The notes under the pieces: model-generated
Seen by the model: the letters and a program-made list of their open reading frames with translations, nothing else
The model's database searches: none
Told to the model about the DNA's origin: nothing
In this document: piece after piece, positions 1-16,048 of the stretch
How positions within the stretch are numbered: position 1 is the stretch's first letter
How the letters are laid out: each line of letters starts with the position of its first letter
Made by a program: the position numbers and the translations under genes
Assembly: GCA_963713975.1 (NCBI GenBank)
Contig: OY970218.1
Location: 2,272,001-2,336,000, forward strand
From: an uncultured Chloroflexia bacterium
GTDB taxonomy: Bacteria; Chloroflexota; Limnocylindria; Limnocylindrales; CSP1-4
Length of the DNA: 64,000 nt
Reading direction: 5' to 3'

Positions 1-296
1 TGGCATGCGAGACCGCCGTCGTCGCGTCGGCGGTGGGCGGGATCCCCGAGGTGGTGGTCCCCGAGGAGACGGGCCTCCTGGTCGATCCGCGGATCCTCCC
101 GGGCACGTTCGACCCGACCGATCCGGCGGCGTTCTCGGCCGATCTCGCCACGGCGATCAACCGCGTGGGGCTGGACGAGGCGCTGCGGGAGCGGATGGGC
201 CTCGCCGGCCGACGCCGCGCCGAGGCGCACTTCAGCTGGGCGGCGATCGCACGCCAGACGCTGGAGCTGTACGGCTCGCTGCTGGGCCGTCCGTAG
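1..296 (+). CDS. GT4 glycosyltransferase (GlgA/GlgM-like), C-terminal part; 5'-truncated by the window
   Basis: Frame from position 3 reads ACETAVVASAVGGIPEVV...GLLV...FSWAAIARQT, a typical GT4 C-terminus. Confidence 0.8.
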   Translation, partial: ACETAVVASAVGGIPEVVVPEETGLLVDPRILPGTFDPTDPAAFSADLATAINRVGLDEALRERMGLAGRRRAEAHFSWAAIARQTLELYGSLLGRP

Positions 297-334
297 CACG
301 CCGGACCTAGGCCCGGCCGAGGCCCGCGGATCCG

Positions 335-1069
335 TCAGTCCGCCTCGCCGATCTCGTAGACCTGGAGCCGGCGGATGGCGACCGCCAGGGCGACGGCGAG
401 GACGGCGATCGACAGGACGACCGCCGTGGCGCCGCCGATGAGCTCGCCCGAGGCAGCCCCGGCGCCGCCGGCGATGGCGTCGGCGATGGACATGGCGTAC
501 TCGTGGATGCTGAACATCCGCGTCCCCTCGAACAGGCCGGCCAGCACGCCCTCCCACACGAGGACGTAGATCAGCCCGATCGCGAGTGCCCGGGACGTGA
601 CCAGACTGAGGGCGAGGAACACCGTCGCGTACAGGGCCGCCGCGACCGCAGCGCCGACCCCGAACCCTGCCGCCGTCGCGAGGCCGGAATCGCCGCTCGA
701 CAGGATGGCCGCGGCAATGAAGGCGGCCGGCGCCGTGACCGCCACCGCCAGCCCCGCCGCGACCGCCGTCTTGGCGACGACGATCCGCCAGCGCTCGATC
801 GGCTTGGCGATCAGGTAGATGGCTGTGCCGTCGTCGATCTCGGACCCAAGGGCGGCGGTGCCGAACACGAGGGCGACCAGCGGCACGAGGGTCGAGATGG
901 CCAGCCCGTCCATGAGCGTGTCGGTGACCGGCTCGAGGTTGGACACCCGCCCGGACACCCTGACGAGCAGCGCGATCAGGATCGGAAGCGCCGCGAGCAA
1001 CGCGACCAGCAGGCTCCGCCGGCGACCGGCCAAGGCACGCACGGTGAGCGCCGCGATGACTCGGATCAC
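335..1069 (-). CDS. ABC-2 type transporter permease
   Basis: Hydrophobic 244 aa with EIDDGTAIYLIAKPIERWRIVVAK motif; coupled to the upstream ATPase. Confidence 0.85.
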   Translation of the reverse strand: MIRVIAALTVRALAGRRRSLLVALLAALPILIALLVRVSGRVSNLEPVTDTLMDGLAISTLVPLVALVFGTAALGSEIDDGTAIYLIAKPIERWRIVVAKTAVAAGLAVAVTAPAAFIAAAILSSGDSGLATAAGFGVGAAVAAALYATVFLALSLVTSRALAIGLIYVLVWEGVLAGLFEGTRMFSIHEYAMSIADAIAGGAGAASGELIGGATAVVLSIAVLAVALAVAIRRLQVYEIGEAD

Positions 1070-2049
1070 CGGCGCACCAGGTAGCCGAAGACGCTCTCGA
1101 GGTCCTCGTCGGTCGGACGGACCTCGAACAGGGTGAGACCGGCGTCGCGGGCGACAACGGCCAGCGAGCGCGCAAACCCCAGGAAGTCCGACGTGCGGAC
1201 CGACAGCCGGCCCGCGCTCAGCTCGACGCCGTACACCGCCGGGATCGCGACCAGCACCGCCGCCAGACGGCGATCGTCCGAGGACTGGATCGTGAAGGTG
1301 TGCGGCCGGTCGGTCATAAGTCGCCGGATCTCCCGGAAGTCGCCTGACGCGGCGAGACGCCCGGCGACGATGACCAGCACGTCCTGGGCCAGCCGCTCCA
1401 CCTCCTCCAGGATGTGGGAGCTGAACAGGATCGTGCGGCCCTCGCCGGCCATCCGGCTGAGGAGATCCATCATGTGCAGTCGCTGGCGAGGGTCCATGCC
1501 GTTGAACGGCTCATCGAGGAGGAGGATCGAGGGCTCGTGGACCAGCGCCCCGGCGATCTTGATGCGCTGGCGCATGCCCTTGGAATAGGTCCCGATCGCC
1601 CGGTCGGCGGCGTCGCCCATGTCGACCGTCGCGATCGCCCGGTCGGCGGCAGCACCAGGGTCGGGGAGTCCCTGGAGCCGTGCGTTGAGCAGGGCGAAGT
1701 CGCGCCCGGTGAGGAACGGATAGACGGCCTCGCGCTCAGGGACGAGCCCGATCCGCCGGTAGATCGCGGGATCGCGCCAGGCCGGTTGGCCGGCGATGAC
1801 GACCCGTCCCGCCGATGGCTTGAGCAGCCCCGACATCAGGTGGAGGAGCGTGGACTTCCCGGCGCCGTTGGGTCCCAGCAGGCCGGTGATCCCGGGCTTG
1901 AGGGTGAACGAGATGTCGTTGACCGCCACGACGTTGCCATACCAGCGCGACACGTCCTGGAGCTCCACGGCGGCGTCGGGGTCGAGGGCGCGCGGGGGGC
2001 TCCCCCCGGGCGTTCCCCAACCCGCCAGCCGCGGATCGCCGGCCGTCAC
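1066..2049 (-). CDS. ABC transporter ATP-binding protein
   Basis: Walker A GPNGAGKST, signature YSKGMRQR, Walker B LLLDEP; GTG start overlaps the upstream stop (GTGA). Confidence 0.92.
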   Translation of the reverse strand: MTAGDPRLAGWGTPGGSPPRALDPDAAVELQDVSRWYGNVVAVNDISFTLKPGITGLLGPNGAGKSTLLHLMSGLLKPSAGRVVIAGQPAWRDPAIYRRIGLVPEREAVYPFLTGRDFALLNARLQGLPDPGAAADRAIATVDMGDAADRAIGTYSKGMRQRIKIAGALVHEPSILLLDEPFNGMDPRQRLHMMDLLSRMAGEGRTILFSSHILEEVERLAQDVLVIVAGRLAASGDFREIRRLMTDRPHTFTIQSSDDRRLAAVLVAIPAVYGVELSAGRLSVRTSDFLGFARSLAVVARDAGLTLFEVRPTDEDLESVFGYLVRR

Positions 2050-2930
2050 GCCTCGATCCTCCGATAGCGCCAGACCAGCCCGACCGTGGACAGGATGGCG
2101 ACGGCCACCGCACCGAGCGCCAGGGCCCAGGCCGGGACATCGGATCCGAGAGCGGCCTCGACGCTCGGCCGGATGCCGAAGAACCACGCGTTGACCCCGT
2201 CGAGCAGCGAGCCGATGTCGGCCAGGATGATCCAGTCCGACAACCCGCCGGAATCCAGGGCGATCACGATCGCCGCGACGATCCCGGGGATGATGAACAC
2301 GCCGAAGATCGCCGCCGTCGCATAGGCCCGGCGCGGCGTGAATGACGCGACCAGCAGGGCCACCGCCGCCAGCGTGAACGCGATCACGACCGATGAGCCG
2401 ACCGCCGCCGGCAGGACGGCCGCCTCCTCTCCGAGCGCCTTGGCGATGTCGGGGTCGATCAGGATCGTCCCGGCCCCGAGCAGGACGTGGGGCACGATCA
2501 GGATCGTCAGGACCCCGATGGTCATGGCGGCGAGCTTGGCGAGGGCATAGTCGGTCCGCCGCAGGGCGCGCGAGAAGTACAGGGTGAGGACCCGGTACCG
2601 CTGGTCGCGGCCGAGCAGCTCGGGCGCCTGCGCCGCGACGAACAGCAGCGGGAACACCGAGATGGCCGCGTACAGCCCGTCATGGCCGGGAATGCCCGGG
2701 ACCTCGCCGACATCGATCTGGGCCCCGATGGCACGGATGGCGACGAGGATGAGGGCGGTCAGCGCAGGGAAGCCGACGCAGACGACGGGCAGGATCTTCG
2801 CCCGTCCGCTACGGCCGAGGCCGAAAACGCTCCGGGTCGCGTGACGGACGAGGGTCGAGACGGCGTGACGGCGGCCGAGCCGCGGTCCGTCGTAGCCGCG
2901 GTAGCCGATGTCGTAGATGCTGCCGCTCAT
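2046..2930 (-). CDS. ABC transporter permease
   Basis: Multi-TM protein with RDQRYRVLTLYFSRAL motif, lying between two ABC ATPases. Confidence 0.85.
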   Translation of the reverse strand: MSGSIYDIGYRGYDGPRLGRRHAVSTLVRHATRSVFGLGRSGRAKILPVVCVGFPALTALILVAIRAIGAQIDVGEVPGIPGHDGLYAAISVFPLLFVAAQAPELLGRDQRYRVLTLYFSRALRRTDYALAKLAAMTIGVLTILIVPHVLLGAGTILIDPDIAKALGEEAAVLPAAVGSSVVIAFTLAAVALLVASFTPRRAYATAAIFGVFIIPGIVAAIVIALDSGGLSDWIILADIGSLLDGVNAWFFGIRPSVEAALGSDVPAWALALGAVAVAILSTVGLVWRYRRIEA

Positions 2931-4042
2931 GACCCCGCTCCCGGGGGAGGGGGCGGCGGGGGCGGCGCCAGCGGCTGGTCCTGCGGAGGCGTCGTCGAGG
3001 GGCCCAGTGCGGGCGCCACCGGATGCGCGATCGGGGCCGCGACGGATGGCGCGATCGGGGCCGTTCGGCCTCGGCCGGCCGTGCCTTCGTCGCCCCGGTC
3101 CTGGTCGCGGAACAGGTCCTCCAGGCTGTGCCGGCTGCGCGTGATCCGGACGAGCGGGAGTCCCAGGTCTGCCACGACATCGCGGATGGCGTCGTACGGG
3201 GCGGTGTCGTCGAGCACGATTCGGACCTCGCGGCCATCTCCGGCACCCGCCGGGGCGAGCACCCGCACGCCGCGTTCCACCAATCGGTCGGCCAGGGCGT
3301 CGCGCCCTTCCTCGACCTCCACGCTCAGGACGCCGGTCTCGGTCGTGAACTCGGACAGCGGCGCAGCGCGGAGGAGGCGCCCGGCGTCGATGGCCACGAG
3401 ATAGTCGCAGACCTCCTCGATCTCGCCGAGCAGGTGGCTGGCCAGGATGATCGCGATCCCGAACTCGTGGCCAGTGCGACTGATGAGCTCGAGCATCTCG
3501 TCGCGACCCGCGGGGTCCAGGCCGTTGGTGGGCTCGTCGAGCAGGAGCAGCCGCGGGTCGTGGACGAGCGCCTGGGCAAGCTGGACGCGCTGGCGCATGC
3601 CGGTCGAGTAGCCACCGATCGGCCGGTAGCGCTCCTCGTACAGGCCCACGTGCCGCAGGACGTCGGAGGTCCGCTCACGGGCGGCCGCCCGGGGCAGGCC
3701 GGACAGCTGGCCCAGGTGGGCGACGAGCTCGGTCGCGCTGATGTCCGGCGGAAGGGCGTTGTGCTCCGGCATGTAACCGACCCAGCGGCGGAGCTCGGTC
3801 CCGCGGGTCGTGGGGTCCATGCCCAGGACGGCGACCTCGCCGCTCGTGGGCGGCAGGAGGCCGAGCAGGATCTTGATCAGGGTCGACTTGCCGGCGCCGT
3901 TCGCGCCGACCAGGCCCACGATCCCCGGCGCGAGCTCCAGCGTGAGGGCGTCGAGCGCGGTGACGCTGGTGAAGCGCTTCGTGAGCGTATCGGTGCGGAC
4001 GATCGGAGCACCGTCGTCTGGAGCGATCCGTTGGGCCGTCAC
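2927..4042 (-). CDS. ABC transporter ATP-binding protein with Pro-rich tail
   Basis: GANGAGKST, YSTGMRQR, LLLDEP; TACCAT -10 lies 6 nt before the GTG (leaderless). Confidence 0.92.
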   Translation of the reverse strand: MTAQRIAPDDGAPIVRTDTLTKRFTSVTALDALTLELAPGIVGLVGANGAGKSTLIKILLGLLPPTSGEVAVLGMDPTTRGTELRRWVGYMPEHNALPPDISATELVAHLGQLSGLPRAAARERTSDVLRHVGLYEERYRPIGGYSTGMRQRVQLAQALVHDPRLLLLDEPTNGLDPAGRDEMLELISRTGHEFGIAIILASHLLGEIEEVCDYLVAIDAGRLLRAAPLSEFTTETGVLSVEVEEGRDALADRLVERGVRVLAPAGAGDGREVRIVLDDTAPYDAIRDVVADLGLPLVRITRSRHSLEDLFRDQDRGDEGTAGRGRTAPIAPSVAAPIAHPVAPALGPSTTPPQDQPLAPPPPPPPPGAGS

Positions 4043-4125
4043 GGGTTCATGGTACCCGGCGACGATGCGGTCGCCGCCGTGGCCATCGGTCGGCGGCCGT
4101 CGCCTCCAGCGCCGCGGGCAGTCAG

Positions 4126-6180
4126 CTAACTTCCGGCGGGTGGCTTGGGCTGCGTGGTGCGGCGCCGCTCACTGCGACGGCGCTCCACGCCACCCGGCGC
4201 CATGGCGACCGCGTTCGTCCGCCGGTCGACCCGCCGTCGCTCGACGCCGGCCGACAACTGGGGCACGGACGTGGGCGCCGCATCGTCCTGCGGGCCGGTC
4301 GTGGCCCCGCGGTCCGGTGCGCTCGCACCGTCAGGTGCGGCCCCGCCCTCCTCGGCGATGATCCCGATCGAGATCCGGAAGCCGGCCCGGCGCTGCTGTG
4401 GCGGCATCAGCGTCCCTTGGCCCACGGGTGCATCGCCCGGGAACCACTTGATCCACTCCTCGCTGAACGGCTCGAACTCGGCCGGGTCGCGCAGGCACCA
4501 GTTGGCCCAGACGATCCTGTCCAGCGACGACCCCTGCGCCTCAAGGCTGGCCTGCAGGTTCCGGAGGCACTGGACCGCCTGCACCCGGATCGTGTCCCCG
4601 GCCAGCCGCCCGGTTGCCGGATCCACCGGACCCACGGACGAGATGTAGATCATGCCGCCGGCTCTGGCCGCCTTGCCCAGGCCGATCGTGAGGCGTGGCG
4701 CGTTCCTGGGGTCGCCCTGCTCGATGCCGATCGAGCGACCCTTGCCGATCCGGGTCTTGACGGGGTGCTCGGGATCCTCGGGCGGGATGCCGAACTCGCC
4801 GGGAGGCAGCTCAATGCCGTTGGCGGCGAACTTGGGCATGAACGTCGGCCGGACGCCGGTCGGCTCCAGCGTGCCCTGCACCCTGCTGTTCTCGTCGATG
4901 CCGGTCTGCTTGAACTCGAAGATGTCGTGGGTGAGGATCTGGTCGTCCTCGATCCCGTAGACCTCGGTGATGTTCATGATCTTGCGCGAGCCGTCCCCCA
5001 GGCGCGCGGTGTGGACGATGATGTCCACGGCGGAGGCGATCTGCTCGCGGATGGACCGCAGCGGCATCTCGTAGCCGGCCATCAGGATCATCGTCTCCAG
5101 GCGCCGGAGCATGTCCGGCGAGCTGTTCGCGTGGCCCGTTGACAGCGAGCCCTCCTGGCCGACCGTCATCGCCTGGATCATGTCCAGCGCCTCGCCACCT
5201 CGGCACTCGCCGACGATGATCCGGTCGGGGCGCATGTGGAGGGCGTTGCGCAGGAGGTCCCGGGTCGTGATCTCGCCGGAGCCCTCCAGGTTGGCCGGGC
5301 GCGCCTCCAGCGTGATGACGTGCTCCTGGCGCAGCTGCAGCTCGGCCGCGTCCTCGATCGTGATGATCCGCTCCTCCTCGGGAACGAACGCGGAGATCAC
5401 GTTGAGGGTGGTCGTCTTGCCCGAGCCGGTGCCCCCGGAGACGAAGAGGTTGAGGCGGGCCTCGACGCACGCGCGCAGGAAATCGAACATCTCCGCTGTG
5501 GCCGTACCGAACTGGACGAGGTCATCGACCGTGTACGGCCGGGCGGAGAACTTCCGGATCGTGATGACGGGCCCGATCAGGGACAGTGGCTCGATGATGC
5601 AGTTGACTCGCGAGCCGTCCGGGAGGCGGGCGTCGACCCGCGGGCTGGTCTGGTCGATGCGGCGGCCGAGCGGCGTGATGATCCGGTCGATGATCCGCAG
5701 GACGTGGTCGTCATTCAGGAAGCCGACGGCCACCCGTACGATCTTGCCCTTCCGCTCGATGTAGATGTGGTCCGGGCCGTTGACCATCACCTCCGTGATC
5801 GTGTCGTCGGCGAGCAGCGGCTCCAGAGGTCCGAGGCCCGTTACCTCGGCCATGACCTCCTCGACCAGGCGCATGCGCTCGTCCCGGGTGAGGGCGAGCC
5901 CGTTGGTCGTGACAAACCGGTCGACGATCCCCTCGACCTTGGCCCGCAGCTCCGTTCCGGCGGCGGCATCGAACAGGGCGTGCGACGAACCGACGACCTC
6001 GCCCTGGAGCCGGCGCCTGACCTCGCGCAGCCATGCTTCGCGGGCCGCGAGCTGGCCGGTCTGGACCGGTGGGGCGATGGGCACCACGGCGGTGGGCGGC
6101 GGGACGTCCCAGGCGCCCTCAGGCTCCTCCTCCGCCGGGATTCCCTGCTGGACGCGCCCGATGCGCTCGGTGAGCGACAT
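4126..6180 (-). CDS. CpaF/TadA-family secretion ATPase with C-terminal RidA/YjgF-like domain
   Basis: GLGPLEPLLAD, VDARLPDGSRVN, GGTGSGKTT, IEDAAEL, RPDRIIVGECRG; then GGMIYISSVGPVDP...QCLRNL RidA-like domain. Confidence 0.88.
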   Translation of the reverse strand: MSLTERIGRVQQGIPAEEEPEGAWDVPPPTAVVPIAPPVQTGQLAAREAWLREVRRRLQGEVVGSSHALFDAAAGTELRAKVEGIVDRFVTTNGLALTRDERMRLVEEVMAEVTGLGPLEPLLADDTITEVMVNGPDHIYIERKGKIVRVAVGFLNDDHVLRIIDRIITPLGRRIDQTSPRVDARLPDGSRVNCIIEPLSLIGPVITIRKFSARPYTVDDLVQFGTATAEMFDFLRACVEARLNLFVSGGTGSGKTTTLNVISAFVPEEERIITIEDAAELQLRQEHVITLEARPANLEGSGEITTRDLLRNALHMRPDRIIVGECRGGEALDMIQAMTVGQEGSLSTGHANSSPDMLRRLETMILMAGYEMPLRSIREQIASAVDIIVHTARLGDGSRKIMNITEVYGIEDDQILTHDIFEFKQTGIDENSRVQGTLEPTGVRPTFMPKFAANGIELPPGEFGIPPEDPEHPVKTRIGKGRSIGIEQGDPRNAPRLTIGLGKAARAGGMIYISSVGPVDPATGRLAGDTIRVQAVQCLRNLQASLEAQGSSLDRIVWANWCLRDPAEFEPFSEEWIKWFPGDAPVGQGTLMPPQQRRAGFRISIGIIAEEGGAAPDGASAPDRGATTGPQDDAAPTSVPQLSAGVERRRVDRRTNAVAMAPGGVERRRSERRRTTQPKPPAGS

Positions 6181-6310
6181 TTCCTGACTTGACTCCCCGT
6201 GCGGGCACAAACGGTCGCCCGATCACCGGATGGTATGCGCCTGCGATGGCGCACGGAACCCCCCACTCGGCCTACGGGGTCCCAGCGGCCCCACGGGTGC
6301 TCGAACTTCG

Positions 6311-6339
6311 TTGACGACGCAAGCAGCGCCCATTACCCT
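6311..6339 (+). promoter_or_regulatory. sigma70-type promoter TTGACG-N17-TACCCT
   Basis: -35 at 6311-6316 and -10 at 6334-6339; the predicted TSS coincides with ATG 6346. Confidence 0.6.
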
Positions 6340-6345
6340 TCGCCC

Positions 6346-6456
6346 ATGGTAGCGGCCGCCCTCACGGGCTGTATGGGTCAGTGGTGCGCCTGTCGACGGC
6401 GAGCGTCGGTGGGTGTCAAGCCCGTGGCCGCCCATTGGGGTTGCCGCGCCGGCTGA
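6346..6456 (+). CDS. Putative leaderless Cys-rich leader peptide (36 aa)
   Basis: MVAAALTGCMGQWCACRRRASVGVKPVAAHWGCRAG; starts at the predicted TSS upstream of DUF4395. Confidence 0.45.
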   Translation: MVAAALTGCMGQWCACRRRASVGVKPVAAHWGCRAG

Positions 6457-6531
6457 CCTTCCCGGGCCTCGCCACTCCCCGTGGTCCCACGCGCGATCGC
6501 GCGTCCGTCCCGCCCCACCCGGAGCCCCAAC

Positions 6532-7035
6532 ATGTCCCTGACCCCTGCCCCCGTTCGCCTGATCGATCCGCGCGGCCAGCGCTTTGGCGCCGGCGTGTCG
6601 GCCGCCCTCCTGTCAGTCGCCTTCCTCCAGGGCCATCCGTGGCTCGTCGCGCTGGTTGGCCTCAACCTGCTCGTCTCGGCGCTCCTCGGCACCCGCCTGT
6701 TCCTGCCGAGCCGCGCTTGGCCACTCGTCCGCTCCGCGTTCCGCCTCGGCCCCGCCGAGCCCGAGCACGAGTATCCGCCACGCTTCGCCCAGGCCCTCGG
6801 CGGCACCTTCCTCGCGCTCGCGTCGGTCGCGTTCCTGGTGGGCGTGCCGACTGCCGGCTGGCTCCTGACCGGTGCCGTTGCGGGCCTGCAGATCCTGCTG
6901 GCGGCCACCGGTATCTGCCTTGGCTGCAGGCTCTACTTCCTGCGCTGGTGGGTGCCGTCGGTCGTCGCGCGGGTATTCCGCCGGACGGACCGGCTGCGCC
7001 CGCTCGAGGTGCCTGTCCTCAACCGGCTCGACTAG
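6532..7035 (+). CDS. DUF4395 family membrane protein
   Basis: IDPRGQRF, EYPPRFAQALG and TGICLGCRLY motifs. Confidence 0.85.
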   Translation: MSLTPAPVRLIDPRGQRFGAGVSAALLSVAFLQGHPWLVALVGLNLLVSALLGTRLFLPSRAWPLVRSAFRLGPAEPEHEYPPRFAQALGGTFLALASVAFLVGVPTAGWLLTGAVAGLQILLAATGICLGCRLYFLRWWVPSVVARVFRRTDRLRPLEVPVLNRLD

Positions 7036-7067
7036 CCCCACGCCGGGGGCCGATGCCCGTTCCTGGC

Positions 7068-7895
7068 CTACGGGGCCTCGAGCCCGTGGGCCTCGAGGAG
7101 CGCGGTATCGGAGAGGATCGCGGCGGTCGATCCATCGGCGACCACCCGCCCGTCGTCCATCACGATGACCCTGGGGAAGACCTCGGCGACCAGCCGCATG
7201 TCGTGCGTGGACACCAGCATCGTCTGGTCCAGGGAGCGCAGCAGCCCGATGAGCTCCCGGCGCCCCCGCGGGTCCAGGCCCGCAGAGGGCTCGTCGAACA
7301 CCAGGATGGACGGGTTCATGGACAGGACCGTGGCCAGGGCCACGCGCTTGCGCTGGCCCAGCGACATGCGATGCGGCACCCGGTGGGCGAATGCGGCCAT
7401 CCCCACCGCCGCCAGGGCGCGCTCGACCCGGCGATGCACCTCGTCGGCCGGGAGGCCCATGTGCAACGGGCCGAACGCCACGTCGTCGAACACGGTGGGG
7501 CTGAACAGCTGGTCGTCGGGATCCTGGAACACGAGGCCGACCTCGGAGCGGACGCGCCGGATCGTGCCCTTGGCAACGGCGAGTCCGGCGACGCGCACGG
7601 TGCCGTGGGTCGGCCGCAGCGTCCCGTTGAGCTGGAGCATCAGCGTGCTCTTGCCGGCACCGTTAGGCCCGACGAGGGCCACCTTCTCCCCGCTGCCGAT
7701 GCGCATGTCGACCCCGAGCAATGCCTCGAACCCGTCGGGGTACTGGAAGTGGACATGGTCGAGCTCGATCGTGCCCCGAGCCTGCCCGTCGTCGGGCGCC
7801 GGATCGCCCGGCGCGGACGCATCGTGAACGTGCTGGTGGACGTGCGGTGGGACTCCGTCGTGGGCGTGCTCGTGGACGTGCGGTTCGGTGCTCAC
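7068..7895 (-). CDS. cbiO: ECF Ni/Co transporter ATPase (CbiO/NikO) with His-rich N-terminus
   Basis: GPNGAGKST, FQDPDDQLFSPTVFDDVAFGP, MSLGQRKR; N-terminus HVHEHAHDGVPPHVHQHVHD. Confidence 0.9.
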   Translation of the reverse strand: MSTEPHVHEHAHDGVPPHVHQHVHDASAPGDPAPDDGQARGTIELDHVHFQYPDGFEALLGVDMRIGSGEKVALVGPNGAGKSTLMLQLNGTLRPTHGTVRVAGLAVAKGTIRRVRSEVGLVFQDPDDQLFSPTVFDDVAFGPLHMGLPADEVHRRVERALAAVGMAAFAHRVPHRMSLGQRKRVALATVLSMNPSILVFDEPSAGLDPRGRRELIGLLRSLDQTMLVSTHDMRLVAEVFPRVIVMDDGRVVADGSTAAILSDTALLEAHGLEAP

Positions 7896-8686
7896 AGGCG
7901 TGGCAGCCACATGATGGCGATGACCTCGTAGGCGGCGAGCAGGGCAAGGACGGCGACCAGCCACGCGATCTCCGACCGGTGGAGCGCGTGAGTCTTCAGG
8001 TGTCGGAACTCGCCCTCGAACCCGCGCGCCTGCATGGCGGCGTAGATGCGCTCGCTGCGCTCGTAGGCCCGCAGGAACAGGGACCCGACCATGCGCCCCG
8101 TCACCGTCGCCCGCCAGCGGATGGAGCCGCCCGATGAGCCGTCCCCTCCCGCGGACCTTGCGGCGCGGGCGCGCAGCATCCGCGACCCCTCGTCGGTGAG
8201 CACGGCGAGGTAGCGGTACATGAAGGAGATGATCGAGATCAGGATGCCCGGCAGGTGCAGCTCCCGCAGGGCGTCGATCAGGTCGTGGAACGGCGTCGTG
8301 AACGCGAGCAGCAGCGCCACCTGGACCGACAGCCAGCTCCCGATCATGATCGTCAGGAAGCGCCGCAGGCCCTCGGCCGAGACGGTCAGGTCGATCGGGC
8401 CGATGGTCATCGTTGCGATGATCTGCTCCTGGACCGTGAAGATCAGCGGGAACGCGGCCAGCGCGAACGGCAGCGCGATCACGGCCGATCGCGACAGCCG
8501 GAATGGGCCCAGGCCGGCCGTTGCCGAACAGGCGACGAGCACGAGCCACACGATCAGCAGGGCCATGAACGACCCGATCGGCAGCAGCGAGATCAGCAGG
8601 ATCGTCGCGATGGCCAGGATGAACTTGAGGCGCGCGTCCGCCCGGTGGAACGGGCTGTCGCCCTCGACGTAGCGATCGAGCTCCAG
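7892..8686 (-). CDS. cbiQ: ECF transporter T component CbiQ/NikQ (probable CTG start)
   Basis: SPFHRADARLK, FMYRY, RAYERSERIYAAMQARGF; AGGAG lies 9 nt upstream of CTG 8686. Confidence 0.88.
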   Translation of the reverse strand: MELDRYVEGDSPFHRADARLKFILAIATILLISLLPIGSFMALLIVWLVLVACSATAGLGPFRLSRSAVIALPFALAAFPLIFTVQEQIIATMTIGPIDLTVSAEGLRRFLTIMIGSWLSVQVALLLAFTTPFHDLIDALRELHLPGILISIISFMYRYLAVLTDEGSRMLRARAARSAGGDGSSGGSIRWRATVTGRMVGSLFLRAYERSERIYAAMQARGFEGEFRHLKTHALHRSEIAWLVAVLALLAAYEVIAIMWLPRL

Positions 8687-8698
8687 GGCGCGGCGCTC

Positions 8699-9061
8699 CT
8701 ACCGGCGACGGCGCGCGAGCACGCGGCCGAGCAGGAACACGATCCCCAGCACGATGGCGACCCCGAGCAGGCCGGACAGGATGGTCGACAGGCGCGGGTC
8801 ACCGATCCCCGGGATCCCGTAGTCGGAGAACAGGCCCGAGAAGAAGTTGGTCGCCCGATCGATGAAGCCCTGGTCCGTGGCGACGCGCTCCAGGCCGTCC
8901 GGGTCTGGCGATGCCAGCGGGGCCAGGATGATGACGACGAGTGCGGCGACGCCGACGCCCGCGACCCACCACCACCGGCCGAGGCGGTGTCCGGTGGGCT
9001 CTGCCGGATCCTGGGCGGGGGCGGGCGGGGGCTCCATCACGGGTTGCGGGTCTCCTGTCAT
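8699..9061 (-). CDS. PDGLE-domain protein (NikN-like)
   Basis: ASPDPDGLERVA motif flanked by two TM helices. Confidence 0.88.
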   Translation of the reverse strand: MTGDPQPVMEPPPAPAQDPAEPTGHRLGRWWWVAGVGVAALVVIILAPLASPDPDGLERVATDQGFIDRATNFFSGLFSDYGIPGIGDPRLSTILSGLLGVAIVLGIVFLLGRVLARRRR

Positions 9062-9071
9062 GTCGATGGGA

Positions 9072-9821
9072 TCAGCCCGCGACCGGGACCGCACCGGCGA
9101 CCCTCGCGGCCTCCAGCCTCGCGGCACGGTCGGGACGCAGGTCCAGCAGATCCGGGCGGGTGGCGGCGATGAACGCCAGCGCCGCGGCCGTGATCAATGC
9201 CTCGCCGACGCCGATGAACACATGGGTTCCGACCATCGCGGGCACCACGAGCTCCGGCGCGATGGTTCCCGACGCGACGAGCATGAGCGCCATTGAGAGC
9301 GATCCGGCCACGACGGACGCCCAGCCGGCGATGCCCGACGCCGGGATGCGTCCCCGGTTCTCGCCACCGAACAGGCGGCACAGCACGCGGTACAGCGCGA
9401 ACCCGCCGAGCGTGCCGATCACCGCCATGTTGAAGATGTTGGCGCCCATCACCACGATGCCGCCATCGGAGAAGACGAGCGCCTGGACCGCGATCACGCA
9501 GGTCATCACGAGCGTGGCGGCCCACGGACCCAGCAGGACCGCGGCGAGGACGCCGCCCAGGAGATGTCCCGACGTGCCTCCCGCGACCTGGAAGTTGAAC
9601 ATCTGCGCCGCGAAGATGAACGCTGCCATCACGCCCATCAGCGGCACGGACCGCTCGTCCAGGGTCCGGTTCGTGCGCTTGACCGAGATGCCGACGACGA
9701 CGGCGATGACGACCCAGAAGAGGATCGAGATCGGCACGCTGAGGAACCGGTCCGGCGCATGCATCGAAGGGTCCAGCGCCCCGGTCGCCGGTGCGGCTGC
9801 GGTGATGGCGAAGAGGTCCAT
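9072..9821 (-). CDS. cbiM: ECF S component CbiM/NikM (alternative start 9764)
   Basis: MHAPDRFL, GTSGHLLGG, QALVFSDGG, GANIFNM. Confidence 0.9.
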   Translation of the reverse strand: MDLFAITAAAPATGALDPSMHAPDRFLSVPISILFWVVIAVVVGISVKRTNRTLDERSVPLMGVMAAFIFAAQMFNFQVAGGTSGHLLGGVLAAVLLGPWAATLVMTCVIAVQALVFSDGGIVVMGANIFNMAVIGTLGGFALYRVLCRLFGGENRGRIPASGIAGWASVVAGSLSMALMLVASGTIAPELVVPAMVGTHVFIGVGEALITAAALAFIAATRPDLLDLRPDRAARLEAARVAGAVPVAG

Positions 9822-9902
9822 GGGATCGGGCTCCCGGCGTGTCAGGGACGGGCTCGTGGTGGGACGGCCTCGAGGTCGGACAGATGCTAGACGCAACGTC
9901 CT

Positions 9903-9926
9903 GTTGTTGCAAGTAGTTGCAACAAC
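9903..9926. promoter_or_regulatory. Perfect 10-4-10 inverted repeat, probable Fur/Nur-family operator
   Basis: GTTGTTGCAA-GTAG-TTGCAACAAC, AT-rich, between divergent cbiM and the fur-family gene. Confidence 0.75.
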
Positions 9927-9953
9927 CCCAGGTCTCACCCTACTCTTCGTTCG

Positions 9954-10430
9954 ATGGACCCGACCGGATCTACCAGCCACACGGCACCCCCGGACGCCCC
10001 GGCACCCTGGCCGGACCTCCGCGAGCGGCTTCATGCGCGAGGGCTGCGCTGGACCCCCCAGCGGCGCGTCCTGGTGGGGGTCCTCGCACGCAGTGACGGC
10101 CACGTGACCGCAGCGGAGCTCATCGAGCGCTGCCGGGACCTGGATCCGGCGACCACGCCTTCGACGGTGTACCGGACGCTCGACGTGCTCGAGGAGCTCG
10201 GCATCGTGCGCCATGCGCACGGCGTGGACGGGCGCGAGGAGTTTCACGTCCTTCCCGATGCCGAGCACGGCCACCTGCACTGTGGCGGCTGCCGGCAGAC
10301 GTGGGAGATCGGCGCCGGGGAGGCGTCGGCCCTGGTCACGGCCCTGCGGGCCGAGCGCGGCTTCGTCGTGGACCTGTCGCACCTGTCGGTGGCCGGCCTG
10401 TGCCGGGAATGCGCCGCGACCGATGGCTGA
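9954..10430 (+). CDS. Fur-family regulator, Nur-like
   Basis: RWTPQRR, STVYRTLDVLEELG, HAH, HGHLHCGGC, HLSVAGLCREC; leaderless with TACTCT -10. Confidence 0.88.
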   Translation: MDPTGSTSHTAPPDAPAPWPDLRERLHARGLRWTPQRRVLVGVLARSDGHVTAAELIERCRDLDPATTPSTVYRTLDVLEELGIVRHAHGVDGREEFHVLPDAEHGHLHCGGCRQTWEIGAGEASALVTALRAERGFVVDLSHLSVAGLCRECAATDG

Positions 10431-10956
10431 CTCGCCCTACCGCAACTCCGGCCGCGTGCCGCCGGGGGTGGTGCCCGTGGTGCCGCGTCCGGGACAGGAG
10501 TCGGTGTGGGACTACCCCAGGCCCCCGGTCGTGGAGCCTGTGGCGGAGCGGATCCGCGTCATCGTGGATGGCGTCTCGATCGCGGACTCGACCCGCGCCG
10601 TTCGCGTCCTCGAGACCGCCGGCGCCCCGGTCTACTACCTGCCAGGCGAAGACGTTCGCAAGGACCTGCTGCGGCCATCGCCGTCGACCAGCCACTGCGA
10701 GTGGAAGGGCGCCGCGTCGTACTGGTCTCTGGAGTCGGGCGCACGGCGGATCCAGGATGTGGCGTGGTCCTACGAGCGCCCGAGCTCCGGGTTCGAGGCC
10801 ATCAGGGGCCACGTTGCCTTCTATGCGGCGAAGGTCGACGAGGCGTGGGTCGGCGTGGAGCGCGCGACGCCGCAGCCGGGTGGGTTCTACGGCGGCTGGA
10901 TGACGTCGCGGATCGTGGGGCCCGTGAAGGGGACCCCCGGCTCCTCGGGCTGGTAG
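10423..10956 (+). CDS. DUF427 family protein
   Basis: ESVWDYPRPP, CEWKGAASYW, QPGGFYGGW. Confidence 0.88.
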   Translation: MADSPYRNSGRVPPGVVPVVPRPGQESVWDYPRPPVVEPVAERIRVIVDGVSIADSTRAVRVLETAGAPVYYLPGEDVRKDLLRPSPSTSHCEWKGAASYWSLESGARRIQDVAWSYERPSSGFEAIRGHVAFYAAKVDEAWVGVERATPQPGGFYGGWMTSRIVGPVKGTPGSSGW

Positions 10957-11002
10957 GCCCGGGCCAAGCCGTCGTCGGCGGAGGGCCGCGGTGCGGAGCG
11001 GG

Positions 11003-11848
11003 TCAGCCGGCCGCGTTGGTCGCCAGCACGGCATCGGACAGCGCCGGCCACGCGGCCGCCGCCCACGGCCCGAACGGCCGGTCCGTCAGGCACGCGATCG
11101 CCAGGCCGGCATCCGGGTCCACCCACAGGAACGACCCACTGGCTCCGAAGTGCCCGAACGTCCTGGGCGAGTTCCGCGTTCCGGTCCAATGGGGCGCCTT
11201 CGTGCCGCGAACCTCGAACCCGAGACCCCAGTCGTTCGGGTCCTGCAGGCCGAACCCCGGCAGCACACCGCGCAGACCCGGGAACGCGACGGTCGTCGCC
11301 TCGACGAGGATGGCCGCCGGGAGGACCCGCGGCCGTAGCAGCTCGCAGGCGAACGCGGCAAGGTCCCGCGCCGGGCCAACCAGCCCCTGGGACGGCGGAC
11401 CGTCCAGGCGGGTCCCCTCCATTCCGAGCGGGTCGAGGACCCATTCCCGGAGCAGCGCCTCGAACGGCCGACTGGCGGCGCCTGCGAGCACATCCGCCAG
11501 GACGTCGTAGCCCGTGTTGGAGTAGATCCGGGTCCGCCCCGGCGGCGACACGACCGCCGGGCCGTCGAAGCCGTACCCGGCCGTGTGGGCCAGGAGATGG
11601 CGGACCGTTGCGCCCGGCGGGCCGGCTGGATCGTCCAGCCCCAGGACGCCCCGGTGGACGCCCGCAAGCACCGCGCAGGCCGTCAAGGGCTTGCTCACGG
11701 ACGCCCACGGCAGGGCCGCGTCCAGGGGCCCGCGGTCGGCCGCCGGGCCATGGCCGTCAACCACCGCCACCGCGGCCGTCACGGCGCCCCAGTCATCGAC
11801 GGCACGGAGCACGGACGCCTCGAGGTGGCGCCCGGAGTGGGGGATCAC
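11003..11848 (-). CDS. Serine hydrolase, beta-lactamase-like family
   Basis: SxxK (SVSK), LLAHTAG, YSN, FGHFG. Confidence 0.85.
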   Translation of the reverse strand: MIPHSGRHLEASVLRAVDDWGAVTAAVAVVDGHGPAADRGPLDAALPWASVSKPLTACAVLAGVHRGVLGLDDPAGPPGATVRHLLAHTAGYGFDGPAVVSPPGRTRIYSNTGYDVLADVLAGAASRPFEALLREWVLDPLGMEGTRLDGPPSQGLVGPARDLAAFACELLRPRVLPAAILVEATTVAFPGLRGVLPGFGLQDPNDWGLGFEVRGTKAPHWTGTRNSPRTFGHFGASGSFLWVDPDAGLAIACLTDRPFGPWAAAAWPALSDAVLATNAAG

Positions 11849-12183
11849 CCGCCCCCGGACCGGTAGACGACGACCTCGAGTTTCTCGAGCGTCACCAGGC
11901 CACCCCCGATCATCGGCTCCAGCTCCGGCAGGACCGCCCGGATCCGGTCGGCCTCGTCGACGGCCTCGACCAGGATCGGCAGGTCCTCGGACAGGGCCAG
12001 GATCCTCGTGGTGTGGACGCGCGAGGACCGCCCGTAGCCCTCGATACCCCGGAACACCGACACGCCGCGGATTCCGCGCTCGCGCATCAGCTGCACGATC
12101 GCGTCGTACAGCGGCTTCCCCTCGTGGTGGTCGGACTCGCCGATATAGATCCGGACCAGCAGGGCCTCGCCCTCGATCGTCAT
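11845..12183 (-). CDS. DUF190 (PII-like) protein
   Basis: RIYIGESD, RGIEGYG, LSEDLPI; standard neighbour of crcB. Confidence 0.88.
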   Translation of the reverse strand: MTIEGEALLVRIYIGESDHHEGKPLYDAIVQLMRERGIRGVSVFRGIEGYGRSSRVHTTRILALSEDLPILVEAVDEADRIRAVLPELEPMIGGGLVTLEKLEVVVYRSGGG

Positions 12184-12193
12184 GGCACGGACC

Positions 12194-12568
12194 TCACGGC
12201 AGCAGTCGACCGATGGCCAGGCCACCGACGACCGCGATCATCCCGAGCATCACGGACCCACCCAGGTTGAGCAGGGCTACCTGCCACGTCCCGTCCTCCA
12301 CCAGCCGCCACGACTCCAGCATCCACGTGGAGAACGTGGTGTAGGCGCCCAGAAAGCCGATCATGAGCGGCCCCCGGACCTCGCGCGGCAGGACGTCTCG
12401 CTCGATCGCCCAGGCGAACAGCACGCCAACCAGGAACGCCCCGGTCACGTTGACGACGAGCGTGCCGAACGGGAAGACGCCCCCGGCGCGGTCGCTGACC
12501 CACAGGTCGAGGGAGCGTCGGGCGATCGCGCCGGCGAACCCGCCGAGCCCGACCAGGACGAGGTCCAC
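12194..12568 (-). CDS. crcB: Fluoride channel CrcB/Fluc
   Basis: GGFAGAIAR, FPFGTLVVNVTG, GFLGAYTTFST. Confidence 0.93.
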   Translation of the reverse strand: MDLVLVGLGGFAGAIARRSLDLWVSDRAGGVFPFGTLVVNVTGAFLVGVLFAWAIERDVLPREVRGPLMIGFLGAYTTFSTWMLESWRLVEDGTWQVALLNLGGSVMLGMIAVVGGLAIGRLLP

Positions 12569-12571
12569 CAG

Positions 12572-13354
12572 CTACTCGGTGGGGGAGGGCACGCCGAGGA
12601 TGTTGAAGCCCCCGTCCACGTAGACGATCTCGCCGGTCACCGCCGTGGACAGGTCCGAGCCGAGGTAGACGGCGGTCTTGCCCACGTCCTCGATGGAGAT
12701 GTGGGCCCGCAGCGGAGCGACCTCGTTGAACGGGCCATACAGCTTGCGGAAGCCGGCGATGCCACCCGCGGACAGCGTGCGGATCGGGCCCGCGGAAATG
12801 GCGTTCACGCGGATTCCGTCGGGTCCCAGATCCGCGGCGAGGTACCGGACGGACGCCTCGAGCGCGGCCTTGGCCACGCCCATGACGTTGTAGTGGGTGA
12901 CGACCTTCTCCGCGCCGTAGTAGGTGAGCGTGATCACGCTGCTGCCGCGGTGGAGATAGGGCCGTGCCTCGCGGGCCAGGGCCACGAGCGAGTAGGCCGA
13001 GATGTCCATGGCGAGGGCGAAGCCGTCCCGCGAGGTGTCCACGAAGGACCCGTCAAGGTCCTCGCGCTTCCCGTAGGCCACCGCATGGACCAGGATGTCG
13101 ATGTCGCCCTGCTGCTCGTGCCACTTCGCCATGACCGAGCGGATCTGCTCATCCGACCCCACGTCGCAGGCCTCGACGAACGGACTGCCGATGGAGTCGG
13201 CGAGCGGCCGGACGCGGCGCTCGATGAGGCTCTCCACCGACGAGAAGCCGACGACGGCACCCTCGTCGTGGAAGGCCTTCGCGATCCCCCAGGCGATGGA
13301 GTGGTCGTTCGCTACCCCGAACACGAGCGCCTTGCGCCCCTCGAGCAGACCCAT
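12572..13354 (-). CDS. fabI: Enoyl-ACP reductase
   Basis: GVANDHSIAWGIA, YNVMGVAKAALE, NAISAGPIRTL. Confidence 0.93.
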   Translation of the reverse strand: MGLLEGRKALVFGVANDHSIAWGIAKAFHDEGAVVGFSSVESLIERRVRPLADSIGSPFVEACDVGSDEQIRSVMAKWHEQQGDIDILVHAVAYGKREDLDGSFVDTSRDGFALAMDISAYSLVALAREARPYLHRGSSVITLTYYGAEKVVTHYNVMGVAKAALEASVRYLAADLGPDGIRVNAISAGPIRTLSAGGIAGFRKLYGPFNEVAPLRAHISIEDVGKTAVYLGSDLSTAVTGEIVYVDGGFNILGVPSPTE

Positions 13355-13387
13355 GCGTGGCTCCTCCCTTCCGATACCCTGCGCATC

Positions 13388-14272
13388 ATGCCGCACCCGG
13401 TCGATCCCGACTCCGCCCTGCGTGCAGCCTTGCACGGGGTCCGCGCGCTGCTGCTTGACCTCGATGGCGTGCTGGTCGCCAAGGGGGCGGCCGTGCCCGG
13501 CGCGGTCGAGGCGCTGGCCGAGCTGGACCGGCGGCGGTTCCCATACCTGGTGGTGACCAACACCTCGCTCGTCTCGCGGGCGACGCTGGCCCGGTGGGGG
13601 AGGGGCGTCGGCTTCAACATCCCCGCGGACCGGTTCCAGTCGGCGCTCTCGGCGTCGGCCGCCATGGTGCGGCGGGAGTATGGCGACCGGCCGGTCTACG
13701 TGATCACGTCGGACGATGCACGGGTGGAGTTCGAGGGCGTCAACCTGGTGGATGCGGCGATGGCGGACGCGTCGCCGGCCGACGTCGCGGCGGTCGTCAT
13801 CGGCGATTCACCGGACCAGCTGACGAAGGCCAACCTGGACCGCGCCTTCCGGCTGGTCCGCGGCGGCGTGGCGCTCATCGGCATGCACCGCAATGCCTGG
13901 TGGCTGACCGAGCAGGGACCCACCCTGGATGCCGGCGCCTTCCTCGTCGGCCTCGAGTACGCGACCGGCAAGCGCGCGAGGACTGTCGGCAAGCCCTCCG
14001 CCGAGAGCTTCAGGCTGGGCTTCGGGCGGCTGGCCGCGGAGGCCCGCGAGCTCGGCGAGCCCCGGCTGCTCCGGCGCGAGGTGGCGATGGTTGGCGACGA
14101 CGTCACCAACGACATCGGCGGCGCGCAGCGGGCGAGCCTGCTCGGGATCTTCGTCCGCACCGGCAAGCACGGCGACGCGGAGCTGGCTGCGGCAGCGAGC
14201 CGCGGGCGGGGCGCGGTCCACCCGGCTGGGATCGCCCCATCGATCGCGGAGGTCGTCGCAGCGCTGCCGTAG
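13388..14272 (+). CDS. HAD-IIA family hydrolase
   Basis: DLDGVL, VTNTS, GKPS, MVGDDVTNDIGGA; leaderless with TACCCT -10. Confidence 0.88.
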   Translation: MPHPVDPDSALRAALHGVRALLLDLDGVLVAKGAAVPGAVEALAELDRRRFPYLVVTNTSLVSRATLARWGRGVGFNIPADRFQSALSASAAMVRREYGDRPVYVITSDDARVEFEGVNLVDAAMADASPADVAAVVIGDSPDQLTKANLDRAFRLVRGGVALIGMHRNAWWLTEQGPTLDAGAFLVGLEYATGKRARTVGKPSAESFRLGFGRLAAEARELGEPRLLRREVAMVGDDVTNDIGGAQRASLLGIFVRTGKHGDAELAAAASRGRGAVHPAGIAPSIAEVVAALP

Positions 14273-14289
14273 CCGACTGGCCATCCGCT

Positions 14290-15909: not shown

Positions 15910-16048
15910 GCCGCCCAGTGTGGCGCCTCCCGGCAAGCGCGTGTATGGCACGGGAGTCCCGGTCCCGGCACTAGACTCTTGGGCAACGAACCCGTCGACC
16001 CCGCGCGTCCGTCCGTGACACCGGCGCGCCCCAAGGGAGCCAACTCCA

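Follow-up and report, generated by a model that had tools for sequence, protein, structure and literature searches.

Introduction

CpaF/TadA, the motor ATPase for both extension and retraction of the Tad (Flp, type IVc) pilus, is known structurally from Caulobacter crescentus (PDB 8rkd, 8rjf, 9e24), and its gene normally stands together with tadB, tadC and flp. R347 of the neighbouring subunit stabilises the gamma-phosphate in the Caulobacter protein and is among the most conserved residues of CpaF and of other type 4 filament motors, as described in the available part of the structural report (Hohl et al., PMC11300603). In the accessible portion of a preprint, CpaF is proposed to reverse by flipping, its C-terminal face meeting the platform for retraction (Whitfield et al., bioRxiv 10.64898/2026.02.24.707734). 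In the same portion, Caulobacter CpaF carrying either R387A or a C-terminal mCherry fusion gives no visible retraction, extension continuing with the mCherry fusion, and "single-orientation" CpaF orthologues show decay of motifs on the C-terminal face. The type IVa pilus is presented there with two paralogous hexameric ATPases, PilB and PilT, which meet one platform by opposite faces. The second system of relevance is the Rid (RidA/YjgF) family, in which an arginine (Arg105) is essential for imine hydrolysis while Tyr17 and Glu120 matter little (Niehaus et al., PMC4433059). The subfamilies Rid4-7, which lack this arginine, keep the glutamate and mostly the aromatic residue, the arginine being replaced by Trp (Rid4, Rid7) or variable (Rid5, Rid6); their functions are called unknown in the available text of that survey, where the only fusions described are tandem Rid proteins. 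This report concerns a single gene joining the two families, a CpaF-type ATPase that carries a Rid-like domain at its C-terminus. The gene (hereafter the fused gene) lies in a window of 64,000 nucleotides, the whole stretch of DNA analysed, from an uncultured Chloroflexia bacterium (GTDB Limnocylindria, Limnocylindrales, CSP1-4; assembly GCA_963713975.1, contig OY970218.1, positions 2,272,001 to 2,336,000).

The fused gene is genuine and not a chimera, and it is strongly conserved among uncultured bacteria of the Limnocylindria. Its product is proposed, with a probability of about 0.4, to be an orientation-locked, slow auxiliary Tad motor or regulator, acting as a one-way motor, holder or brake. 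No description of a CpaF and RidA architecture was found in the literature, as judged by title and abstract, and the same was true of Limnocylindria in combination with a pilus, in keeping with the initial annotation of this DNA, whose author knew of no characterisation of the architecture.

Architecture of the Fused Gene

The fused gene is encoded on the minus strand by a coding sequence (CDS) at positions 4126-6180 of the window, with an ATG at 6180 and a product of 684 amino acids (aa) followed by a stop codon. A longer frame starting from TTG and reaching 6210 exists and is unneeded for the call, and the N-terminus MSL..RI is common to the homologues and to the canonical CpaF paralog of the same genome, with which the N-terminal region can be aligned from residue 1. 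The frame contains no stop codons and has a coding-like codon-position GC pattern with a GC fraction at third positions (GC3) of 0.92, which is typical of the genome; the G+C content of the window DNA is ~70%. The features of the gene are the following.

4126..6180, minus strand: whole CDS, comprising CpaF-type ATPase, linker, Rid-like domain and tail; stop codon at 4126-4128
5842..6180, minus strand: N-terminal region, residues 1-113, modelled as a disordered stretch followed by a helical bundle like NTD0/NTD1 of CpaF
5002..5841, minus strand: T2SSE ATPase core, residues 114-393 (PF00437; alignment to Caulobacter CpaF 8rkd and 9e24)
5236..5238, minus strand: His315 codon CAC, at the position of the trans-acting arginine (Caulobacter R347) by alignment
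5155..5157, minus strand: Gln342 codon CAG, at the first His of the His box (GHDG changed to GQEG) by alignment
5116..5118, minus strand: Pro355 codon, at the Caulobacter R387 position on the C-terminal (retraction) face by alignment
4693..4785, minus strand: conserved linker, residues 466-496 (GIPPEDP.HPVK.R.GKGR...), defined by conservation
4348..4692, minus strand: Rid (RidA/YjgF) fold domain, residues ~497-611, predicted trimer (Pfam, profile against PDB, Foldseek, model)
4420..4422, minus strand: Gly587 codon GGC, at the position of the RidA catalytic Arg105 by profile alignment
4129..4347, minus strand: C-terminal tail, residues 612-684, modelled as disordered (predicted local distance difference test, pLDDT, ~32)
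4219..4248, minus strand: tail motif 1, GVERRRVDRR, residues 645-654
4159..4191, minus strand: tail motif 2, GVERRRSERRR, residues 664-674

The domain names NTD0 and NTD1 follow the usage in the available text of PMC11300603. Pfam T2SSE (PF00437) matches residues 114-393 with 205.1 bits against a cut-off of 24.9, and Ribonuc_L-PSP (PF01042) matches residues 502-585 with 46.3 bits against a cut-off of 27.3. The best NCBIfam model, that of the TadA family ATPase (TIGR03819), scores 313.2 bits, under its cut-off of 373.15, and the RidA subfamily model TIGR00004 scores 42.8 bits, under its cut-off of 106.25. In a model of the full-length protein, the Rid part has pLDDT values of 83-94 by block, except for one block of 66 at residues 491-500, and the linker (473-492) and tail (614-684) fall below 50. 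The linker residues K480, G481 and R482 are invariant across 57 sequences, and unfused CpaF proteins lack the linker altogether, their alignment to the fused protein showing a gap from residue 466 onward. The initial annotation had read this frame as a full CpaF ATPase followed by a RidA-like domain and a tail with ERR motifs; its coordinates were right and given without a strand, Pfam and the modelled fold agree with it, and both tail motifs, VERRRVDRR and VERRRSERRR, are present at residues 645-654 and 664-674. As a separate observation, the precomputed Pfam family PF27713.1 is annotated on every fused protein.

Conservation and Distribution of the Fusion

Both PF00437 and PF01042 are found in all but 2 of the best 120 protein clusters, which are 62-91% identical to the query and derive from many sources, and most of the fused proteins among them are 600-611 aa long. 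Among species-representative genomes, ~60 of which carry the fused architecture, 519 stretches encode a relative, and 58 of the 78 loci kept are of the fused form, defined by a match that reaches query residue 580; all are labelled Chloroflexota, mostly Limnocylindrales or Limnocylindria. The distribution within the class was followed in a sample of 301 genomes with a profile of the domain, a match at E <= 1e-53 being counted as of fused strength. The fused-type domain is found in 63 of the 91 sampled genomes of the window's own family and in none of those from three other Limnocylindria families (0/12, 0/92 and 0/2), and a fourth family gives only matches of a weaker, stand-alone type, in 4 of 103 genomes. 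In comparisons with four close relatives, the ratio of nonsynonymous to synonymous substitution rates (dN/dS) lies at 0.09-0.14 in the ATPase and at 0.12-0.29 in the linker plus Rid part, with saturation of synonymous sites in more distant pairs. Both halves of the gene are under purifying selection.

These data bear on whether the gene could be an artefact (a chimera made in assembly, two genes joined by read-through, or a pseudogene in decay), which is hardly credible. The recurrence of the fusion in relatives, a check proposed in the initial annotation, is clear: the same junction occurs in more than 100 independent protein clusters and in ~60 genomes from many studies, and this recurrence together with dN/dS well below 1 in both halves refutes an artefact; the linker is conserved and the frame is free of stops as well. 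Nothing in the window itself speaks for an artefact, and hints of sequence error are confined to two relatives. In one (locus L009), the frame of the fused gene continues for 568 aa past the Rid domain, and in the other (L020), unrelated sequence stands in place of the second tail motif; each looks like a frameshift, either real or introduced by assembly.

Several minor observations concern copy number and the reach of the search. Four pairs of loci (L036/L038, L029/L044, L022/L053 and L051/L054) represent two profile matches within one genome, and the members of a pair are often close in the tree. Three genomes (G182, G194 and G295) have two domain matches, both at fused strength, and in three others (G128, G131 and G227) the second match is of the weaker, stand-alone type. 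A scan of 16 proteins from the best 150 of 8392 profile hits found no T2SSE and Rid architecture beyond the fused family and its fragments, and the other long hits to the Rid profile that were scanned are tandem Rid fusions. A listing of sequencing runs comprised 24 rows, each with a word share of at most 0.07, and named no RNA run.

Origin from the CpaF of the tad Locus

The genome, a single contig of 3.62 Mb, encodes three T2SSE ATPases. The two others each adjoin two T2SSF genes and together account for all 4 T2SSF matches of the genome; beside the fused gene, as the initial annotation had stated for tadB, tadC and flp, there is no T2SSF gene, and its neighbours in the window are unrelated to pili. 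A canonical cpaF-tadBC locus, which that annotation had recommended looking for, is present 0.9 Mb away at C1:1.355-1.367 Mb with flp, cpaB and tadZ, its genes following the order histidine kinase, NarL/LuxR response regulator, kinase-like gene, flp, flp, cpaB/rcpC, tadZ with a receiver domain, cpaF, tadB and tadC. Over residues 1-465, the fused protein shares 61% identity with the product of the cpaF of this locus (C1:1358428-1359843). Two details of this locus may be recorded in passing: the tadZ/CpaE-type ParA/MinD ATPase (C1:1359890-1361158, minus strand; L095:9890-11158) bears its response-regulator receiver domain at the N-terminus, and the response regulator of the locus is flanked by two histidine-kinase genes.

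In a tree of 77 ATPase cores obtained by a quick IQ-TREE search, the 59 fused sequences form one clade with a support of 100 in the Shimodaira-Hasegawa-like approximate likelihood ratio test (SH-aLRT) and a stem length of 0.33. The sister of this clade is the genome's own canonical CpaF, and other unfused CpaF proteins of Limnocylindria and Anaerolineae fall outside, such that the fused protein nests within Chloroflexota CpaF. Furthermore, stand-alone Rid proteins of ~125 aa from the same class are 44-50% identical to the fused Rid part. Because there is one fused clade, sister to canonical CpaF, and because stand-alone Rid relatives exist in the same class, the sequences indicate that the fused gene is a duplicate of the canonical tad-locus cpaF which captured a local stand-alone Rid gene once, in one Limnocylindria family. 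Both copies have mostly been retained: by hand count, the fused-type gene is paired with a canonical CpaF of at least 78% identity in 26 of the 30 genomes, the exceptions being G312, in which the canonical gene looks frameshifted, G323 (79% complete), G321 and G307. Of 120 family genomes, 111 contain T2SSF (110 of 119 when G341, the genome flagged unpublished, is left aside), and most have only 2 matches, equivalent to one platform pair; all 33 genomes with the fused gene that are common to both samples have at least two T2SSF matches by hand count. In G312, as a side observation, the canonical cpaF (L128; G312:C4:22000-31000) stands beside tadB/C and is matched as five pieces in different frames, which reflects either a pseudogene or assembly indel errors; the fused paralog of this genome is intact.

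This origin weighs on the alternative that the fused ATPase serves something other than the Tad pilus, for example another Tad-like locus, of divergent type, or some unrelated substrate, with the Rid trimer as an adaptor. Although the gene is an orphan with changing neighbours and its 313 bits against the NCBIfam TadA model lie under the cut-off of 373, its sister is a canonical Tad CpaF and its N-terminal, platform-facing half is highly conserved. A candidate client does exist in the genome, namely a locus with a T2SSE gene and two T2SSF genes at C1:1.235 Mb, but its ATPase shares just 39% identity with the fused protein and most family genomes show a single platform pair. Two incomplete genomes with the fused gene and without T2SSF or canonical CpaF would, if real, argue for such a role, whereas the tail motif described below points to the regulator of the canonical tad locus. 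Overall, a Tad-independent role is considered quite unlikely. The second Tad-like locus itself (C1:1234959-1237766, plus strand; loci L003, L006 and L007) encodes the T2SSE protein with two weak T2SSF matches, and a long Arg/Pro-rich frame lies upstream of the ATPase core.

ATPase Catalytic Residues and the C-Terminal Face

The alignment of the ATPase to the C. crescentus CpaF structures covers residues 81-457 (E 6e-112), is ungapped except for a one-residue insertion near residue 443, and gives a numbering offset of 32 to Caulobacter CpaF (8rkd/9e24). The domain order is the same. Walker A K255, Asp-box E280, Walker B E325, R327, His-box H350 and the cis arginines R185 and R191 are all kept, without variation among 57 homologues, and correspond to K287, E312, E357, R359, H382, R217 and R223 of the Caulobacter protein. 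By this alignment, the fused ATPase keeps its nucleotide-binding and cis-catalytic residues.

The residues that distinguish the fused clade are few: between its 59 sequences and 17 unfused ones, just five differences are fixed. The R347 position (R326 of FlaI) is occupied by His in 59/59 fused sequences, including His315 of the window, as opposed to Arg in 17/17 unfused relatives; Arg is also found in two further unfused paralogs (G209 and G161). Since His is fixed in 59/59 fused sequences against Arg in 19/19 unfused ones, this pattern is not one of drift. At the R387 position, all 17 unfused sequences have Arg, whereas Arg has been lost from 51 of the 59 fused sequences (P 37, R 8, A 7, K 4, other 3; Pro355 in the window). 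Changes in the fused clade extend to the equivalents of R469, K478 and E484. The initial annotation had drawn attention instead to GQEG in place of GH(D/E)G in the His box. The reading is correct, with Gln at the first His in 45/59 fused genes and GHDG in the canonical paralog, but 14/59 fused genes keep GHDG, and GQEG was rejected as a hallmark of the family and is a subclade trait. Moreover, the change spares the gamma-phosphate His, which is H382 in Caulobacter according to the available text of Hohl et al. (PMC11300603) and whose equivalent, H350, is intact. The exchange of the trans arginine for His and the decay of the R387-type arginine, which are the more telling changes, were missed in that annotation.

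Structure and Degeneration of the Rid-Like Domain

The RidA fold of the C-terminal domain, for which a check had been called for, was confirmed against solved RidA structures, which the domain profile matches in PDB with E 1.9e-19. A model of residues 470-609, based on 46 homologues, has a mean pLDDT of 77 with its first 19 residues disordered, and Foldseek matches it to 5hp7 with E 2.6e-9, a template modelling (TM) score of 0.90 on the target and a root-mean-square deviation of 1.7 A over 106 columns. Both the profile alignment to PDB and the alignment of the stand-alone relatives place P-V-G at the RidA P-A-R motif and I-S-I at the V-E-V strand. Gly587 occupies the Arg105 position, as does Gly in 46/46 fused domains; the Tyr17 position is Leu501, in a variable column, and the Glu120 position is Ser604. 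The stand-alone relatives read P-P-A-R-Q-G in 9/9, show F or Y in the Tyr17 column in 8/9, and read R-I-S-I at the Glu120 strand. Loss of the arginine and the aromatic residue is thus specific to the fusion, since the stand-alone relatives retain both, whereas Ser at the Glu120 position is inherited, since the Arg-bearing relatives share it. Judged by these residues, the Rid part has lost what is needed for imine deaminase chemistry, namely Arg105 and the Tyr17 aromatic. The degeneracy claimed initially from PVG and ISIG is accordingly borne out for Arg105 to Gly, but the exchange of Glu120 for Ser, found in relatives that bear the arginine, was rejected as a mark of degeneration in the fusion.

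In fold and Pfam score the fused domain belongs with the Rid family, it is modelled as a trimer, and like Rid4-7 it is without the imine-hydrolysis arginine. Its residues (Gly for Arg, no aromatic, Ser for Glu) do not fit any of Rid4-7, from which it is set apart as far as the available description goes (PMC4433059), and its nearest relatives are the Arg-bearing stand-alone proteins of the same class rather than Rid4-7. It also differs from the tandem Rid fusions of that survey in being attached to an ATPase. In the fused domain, an invariant RR pair (R597 and R598) lies in an insertion of two residues not seen in the stand-alone relatives. The family offers a clear case of the Rid fold reused, on the evidence of its residues, for something other than imine hydrolysis. 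A minor observation on the stand-alone relatives is that those in L086 and L087 (G171 and G195) directly follow a large protein of ~560-600 aa, in the same frame in L087, which may represent another Rid fusion or an overlapping gene pair.

A three-copy model of the Rid domain scores 0.89 against 0.02 for the best control, a result that may reflect no more than likeness to the solved Rid trimers; the score mark used is reached by 20/30 solved pairs and 1/23 single chains. Runs agree in at least 64% of contacts with pLDDT of at least 77, and the modelled interface takes in the old active-site strand (domain residues 116-122). A high-confidence trimer of this kind, together with an intact set of cis-catalytic residues, would also suit an alternative in which the Rid-like domain is a mere structural clamp of a normal bidirectional hexamer and the changes at His315 and the R387 position are neutral drift. 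Some of the changes in the family clearly are drift, given that GHDG is kept in 14/59 fused genes, but the complete segregation of His and Arg at position 315 between fused sequences and unfused relatives and paralogs is difficult to reconcile with neutrality, and the retention of a canonical CpaF in 26/30 genomes argues for a distinct role. A mere clamp is therefore regarded as very unlikely.

The C-Terminal Tail and an Arg-Rich Motif Shared with the tad-Locus Regulator

Beyond the Rid domain, most fused proteins have no tail: 45/58 species-representative fused genes end 2 residues past the aligned domain segment (residue 609), and tails of at least 40 aa occur in 9/58. Similarly, among stored proteins in which the end of the domain could be found (99/121), the tail is shorter than 10 aa in 84. 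The motif ERRRx(D/E/Q)RR is present in the tails of five loci (L008, L020, L024, L025 and L059) besides the window, twice in 4 of these, and motif-bearing tails are restricted to the nearest clade of the window. The stored proteins include 10 with two motifs (9 distinct, the protein of the window being stored twice) and one more with a single motif. With pLDDT ~32 in the monomer model, the tail is modelled as disordered and its docking is left without information.

In a six-frame scan of the genome, the strict motif occurs 3 times and a loose form 54 times, 3 of them in frames with coding-like codon GC. Two of these three copies belong to the fused tail, and the remaining one stands at the start of the NarL-type response regulator encoded in the tad locus (C1:1364841-1365575, minus strand; L095:14838-15575). 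Orthologues of this NarL/LuxR regulator (L096-L125) are found in 56/60 sampled family genomes, and its N-terminal tag, Y.GPERRRGGPDRR, which lies ahead of the receiver domain and has no Pfam annotation, is complete in 27/30 orthologues and partial in the other 3 by hand count. The tag is present in five genomes in which no fused gene was found (G008, G074, G107, G152 and G218), which implies that the regulator tag has a partner of its own. From the sequences, the motor tail of the window's clade seems to have acquired the same tag as the tad-locus regulator, and motor and regulator might compete for one docking site, which would link pilus mechanics to tad transcription.

The initial annotation had proposed another use of these elements, namely that a regulatory ATPase variant ties Tad pilus activity to a metabolite or to cyclic diguanylate (c-di-GMP). 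In this alternative, the CpaF motor is fully active, and either the Rid cleft senses a metabolite or the tail binds c-di-GMP, coupling the pilus to a metabolic or second-messenger state. Rid folds do bind small carboxylates at their trimer clefts, as stated in the available text of PMC4433059, and the fused domain has invariant cleft-side residues of its own (R597/R598, Q588, W561 and W576); however, the carboxylate-binding arginine and the Tyr17 aromatic are gone, no ligand is pointed to by the gene context, and no riboswitch lies upstream, such that no evidence of ligand sensing was obtained. Likewise, RxxxR spacings are present in the tail motifs, but the tail is lacking in 45/58 family members and modelled as disordered, no PilZ domain was found in the fused protein with Pfam at E <= 0.01, and no D/NxSxxG was seen in the tail by eye. 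Sensing would also leave the changes at His315 and the R387-type arginine unexplained, and this alternative is judged unlikely. What stands of the initial proposal is an orphan CpaF paralog with a non-catalytic Rid domain, for which a regulatory role is plausible; the coupling to a ligand or to c-di-GMP is unsupported.

A Proposed Role in Tad Pilus Dynamics

According to the proposal of an orientation-locked, slow auxiliary motor, the fused protein would assemble into a hexamer of the CpaF type, with two Rid-like trimers mounted on its C-terminal face. As the trimers would sit on the C-terminal face, the capped hexamer would engage the TadB/TadC platform only by its N-terminal (extension) face. 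With a slow turnover of ATP, the fused motor would work alongside the reversible canonical CpaF and bias pilus dynamics in the manner of a one-way motor, a holder or a brake. The Arg-rich tail motifs of the window's clade would probably give the motor access to the partner of the tad-locus regulator. A more specific version, in which the Rid trimers block the retraction face and the exchange of the trans arginine for His slows the cycle, yielding an extension-only motor or pilus "latch" with a tag borrowed from the tad-locus regulator next to a reversible canonical CpaF, is more speculative and unlikely. If true, it would mean that a division of labour like that of PilB/PilT had arisen a second time, independently and in nature, and it would put the motor-inversion model to a natural test.

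A close precedent is the engineered CpaF-mCherry of Caulobacter (bioRxiv 10.64898/2026.02.24.707734, available portion), which likewise places a folded domain at the CpaF C-terminus. With its trimerising domain, decay at the R387 position and changed C-terminal motif, the fused family resembles this C-terminal cap experiment as carried out by nature. It differs in that the fusion is natural, trimerising, joined by a conserved linker and found in a monoderm-type Chloroflexota lineage alongside an unfused CpaF. The likeness to PilB/PilT is one of principle, the split here being placed inside a single-motor Tad system through the capping of one face of a duplicate.

Several points weigh against the proposal. 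Hexamer formation, ATPase rate, platform binding and orientation of the fused protein are all inferred. The linker is ~30 residues long and modelled as disordered, and the Rid trimers therefore need not sit on or block the C-terminal face. Histidine can sometimes replace arginine functionally, and slow turnover of the fused ATPase need not follow; the R387-type arginine is kept in 8/59 fused genes. The tail motif is short, and the link to the regulator could be convergence. The best family of neighbouring genes, from all-against-all clustering of flanking open reading frames (ORFs), occurs in only 13/58 fused loci. The fused gene is dispensable, as it is missing from 26/91 sampled family genomes that otherwise keep their Tad genes. 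G321 (87% complete) and G307 (73% complete) carry it without T2SSF and canonical CpaF, which, if real, argues for a Tad-independent role. The co-occurrence with TadB/C, considered as support, was rejected: genomes without the fused gene have T2SSF too, and because T2SSF is nearly universal in the family the co-occurrence is uninformative. Lastly, the flip model derives from one preprint, based, in its available portion, largely on AlphaFold3 models, and from a distant diderm species (bioRxiv 10.64898/2026.02.24.707734).

The auxiliary-motor reading gains its interest from the combination of features that evolution has kept family-wide: a CpaF copy with a trimerising cap, a lost retraction-face arginine and a changed trans arginine, beside an unmodified copy. 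The support for the CpaF inversion proposal consists of models, point mutants and an mCherry cap added artificially, and the fused family provides natural test material for it and for the arginine finger. The Arg-rich tag common to the motor tail and the tad-locus regulator would in addition be a new lead to pilus regulation in uncultured soil and freshwater bacteria.

Gene Neighbourhood and Other Features of the Window

Downstream of the fused gene lie ABC-2 exporter genes, encoding two ABC ATPases and ABC-2 permeases. Upstream, a divergent gene for a DUF4395 membrane protein is followed by genes for CbiQ, a PDGLE-domain protein, CbiM, an ABC ATPase and a Fur-type regulator, and by other genes. 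A conserved neighbourhood as a clue to a partner was considered and rejected: the neighbours in the window recur in close relatives only, and the neighbourhoods of the 58 fused loci gave no functional partner, the clusters of flanking ORFs being inflated by shadow ORFs of high-GC DNA. Rfam gave 0 matches at E <= 0.1 over window positions 1-16000, with no riboswitch for the fused gene, the Cbi cluster or CrcB, and a promoter and terminator scan of 3900-6600 gave 0 sites. The minus-strand cluster of CbiM, PDGLE, CbiQ and ABC ATPase genes at 7068-10430 corresponds to CbiMNQO, an energy-coupling factor (ECF) system for cobalt/nickel uptake, and the Fur-family regulator is divergent at 9954-10430 on the plus strand. 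In each of the long ORFs 7068-8549 and 9072-10382, a real gene is joined to an out-of-frame extension. Further along, at 11845-12568 on the minus strand, there is a 32-base overlap between a DUF190 gene and the gene of a CrcB fluoride channel.

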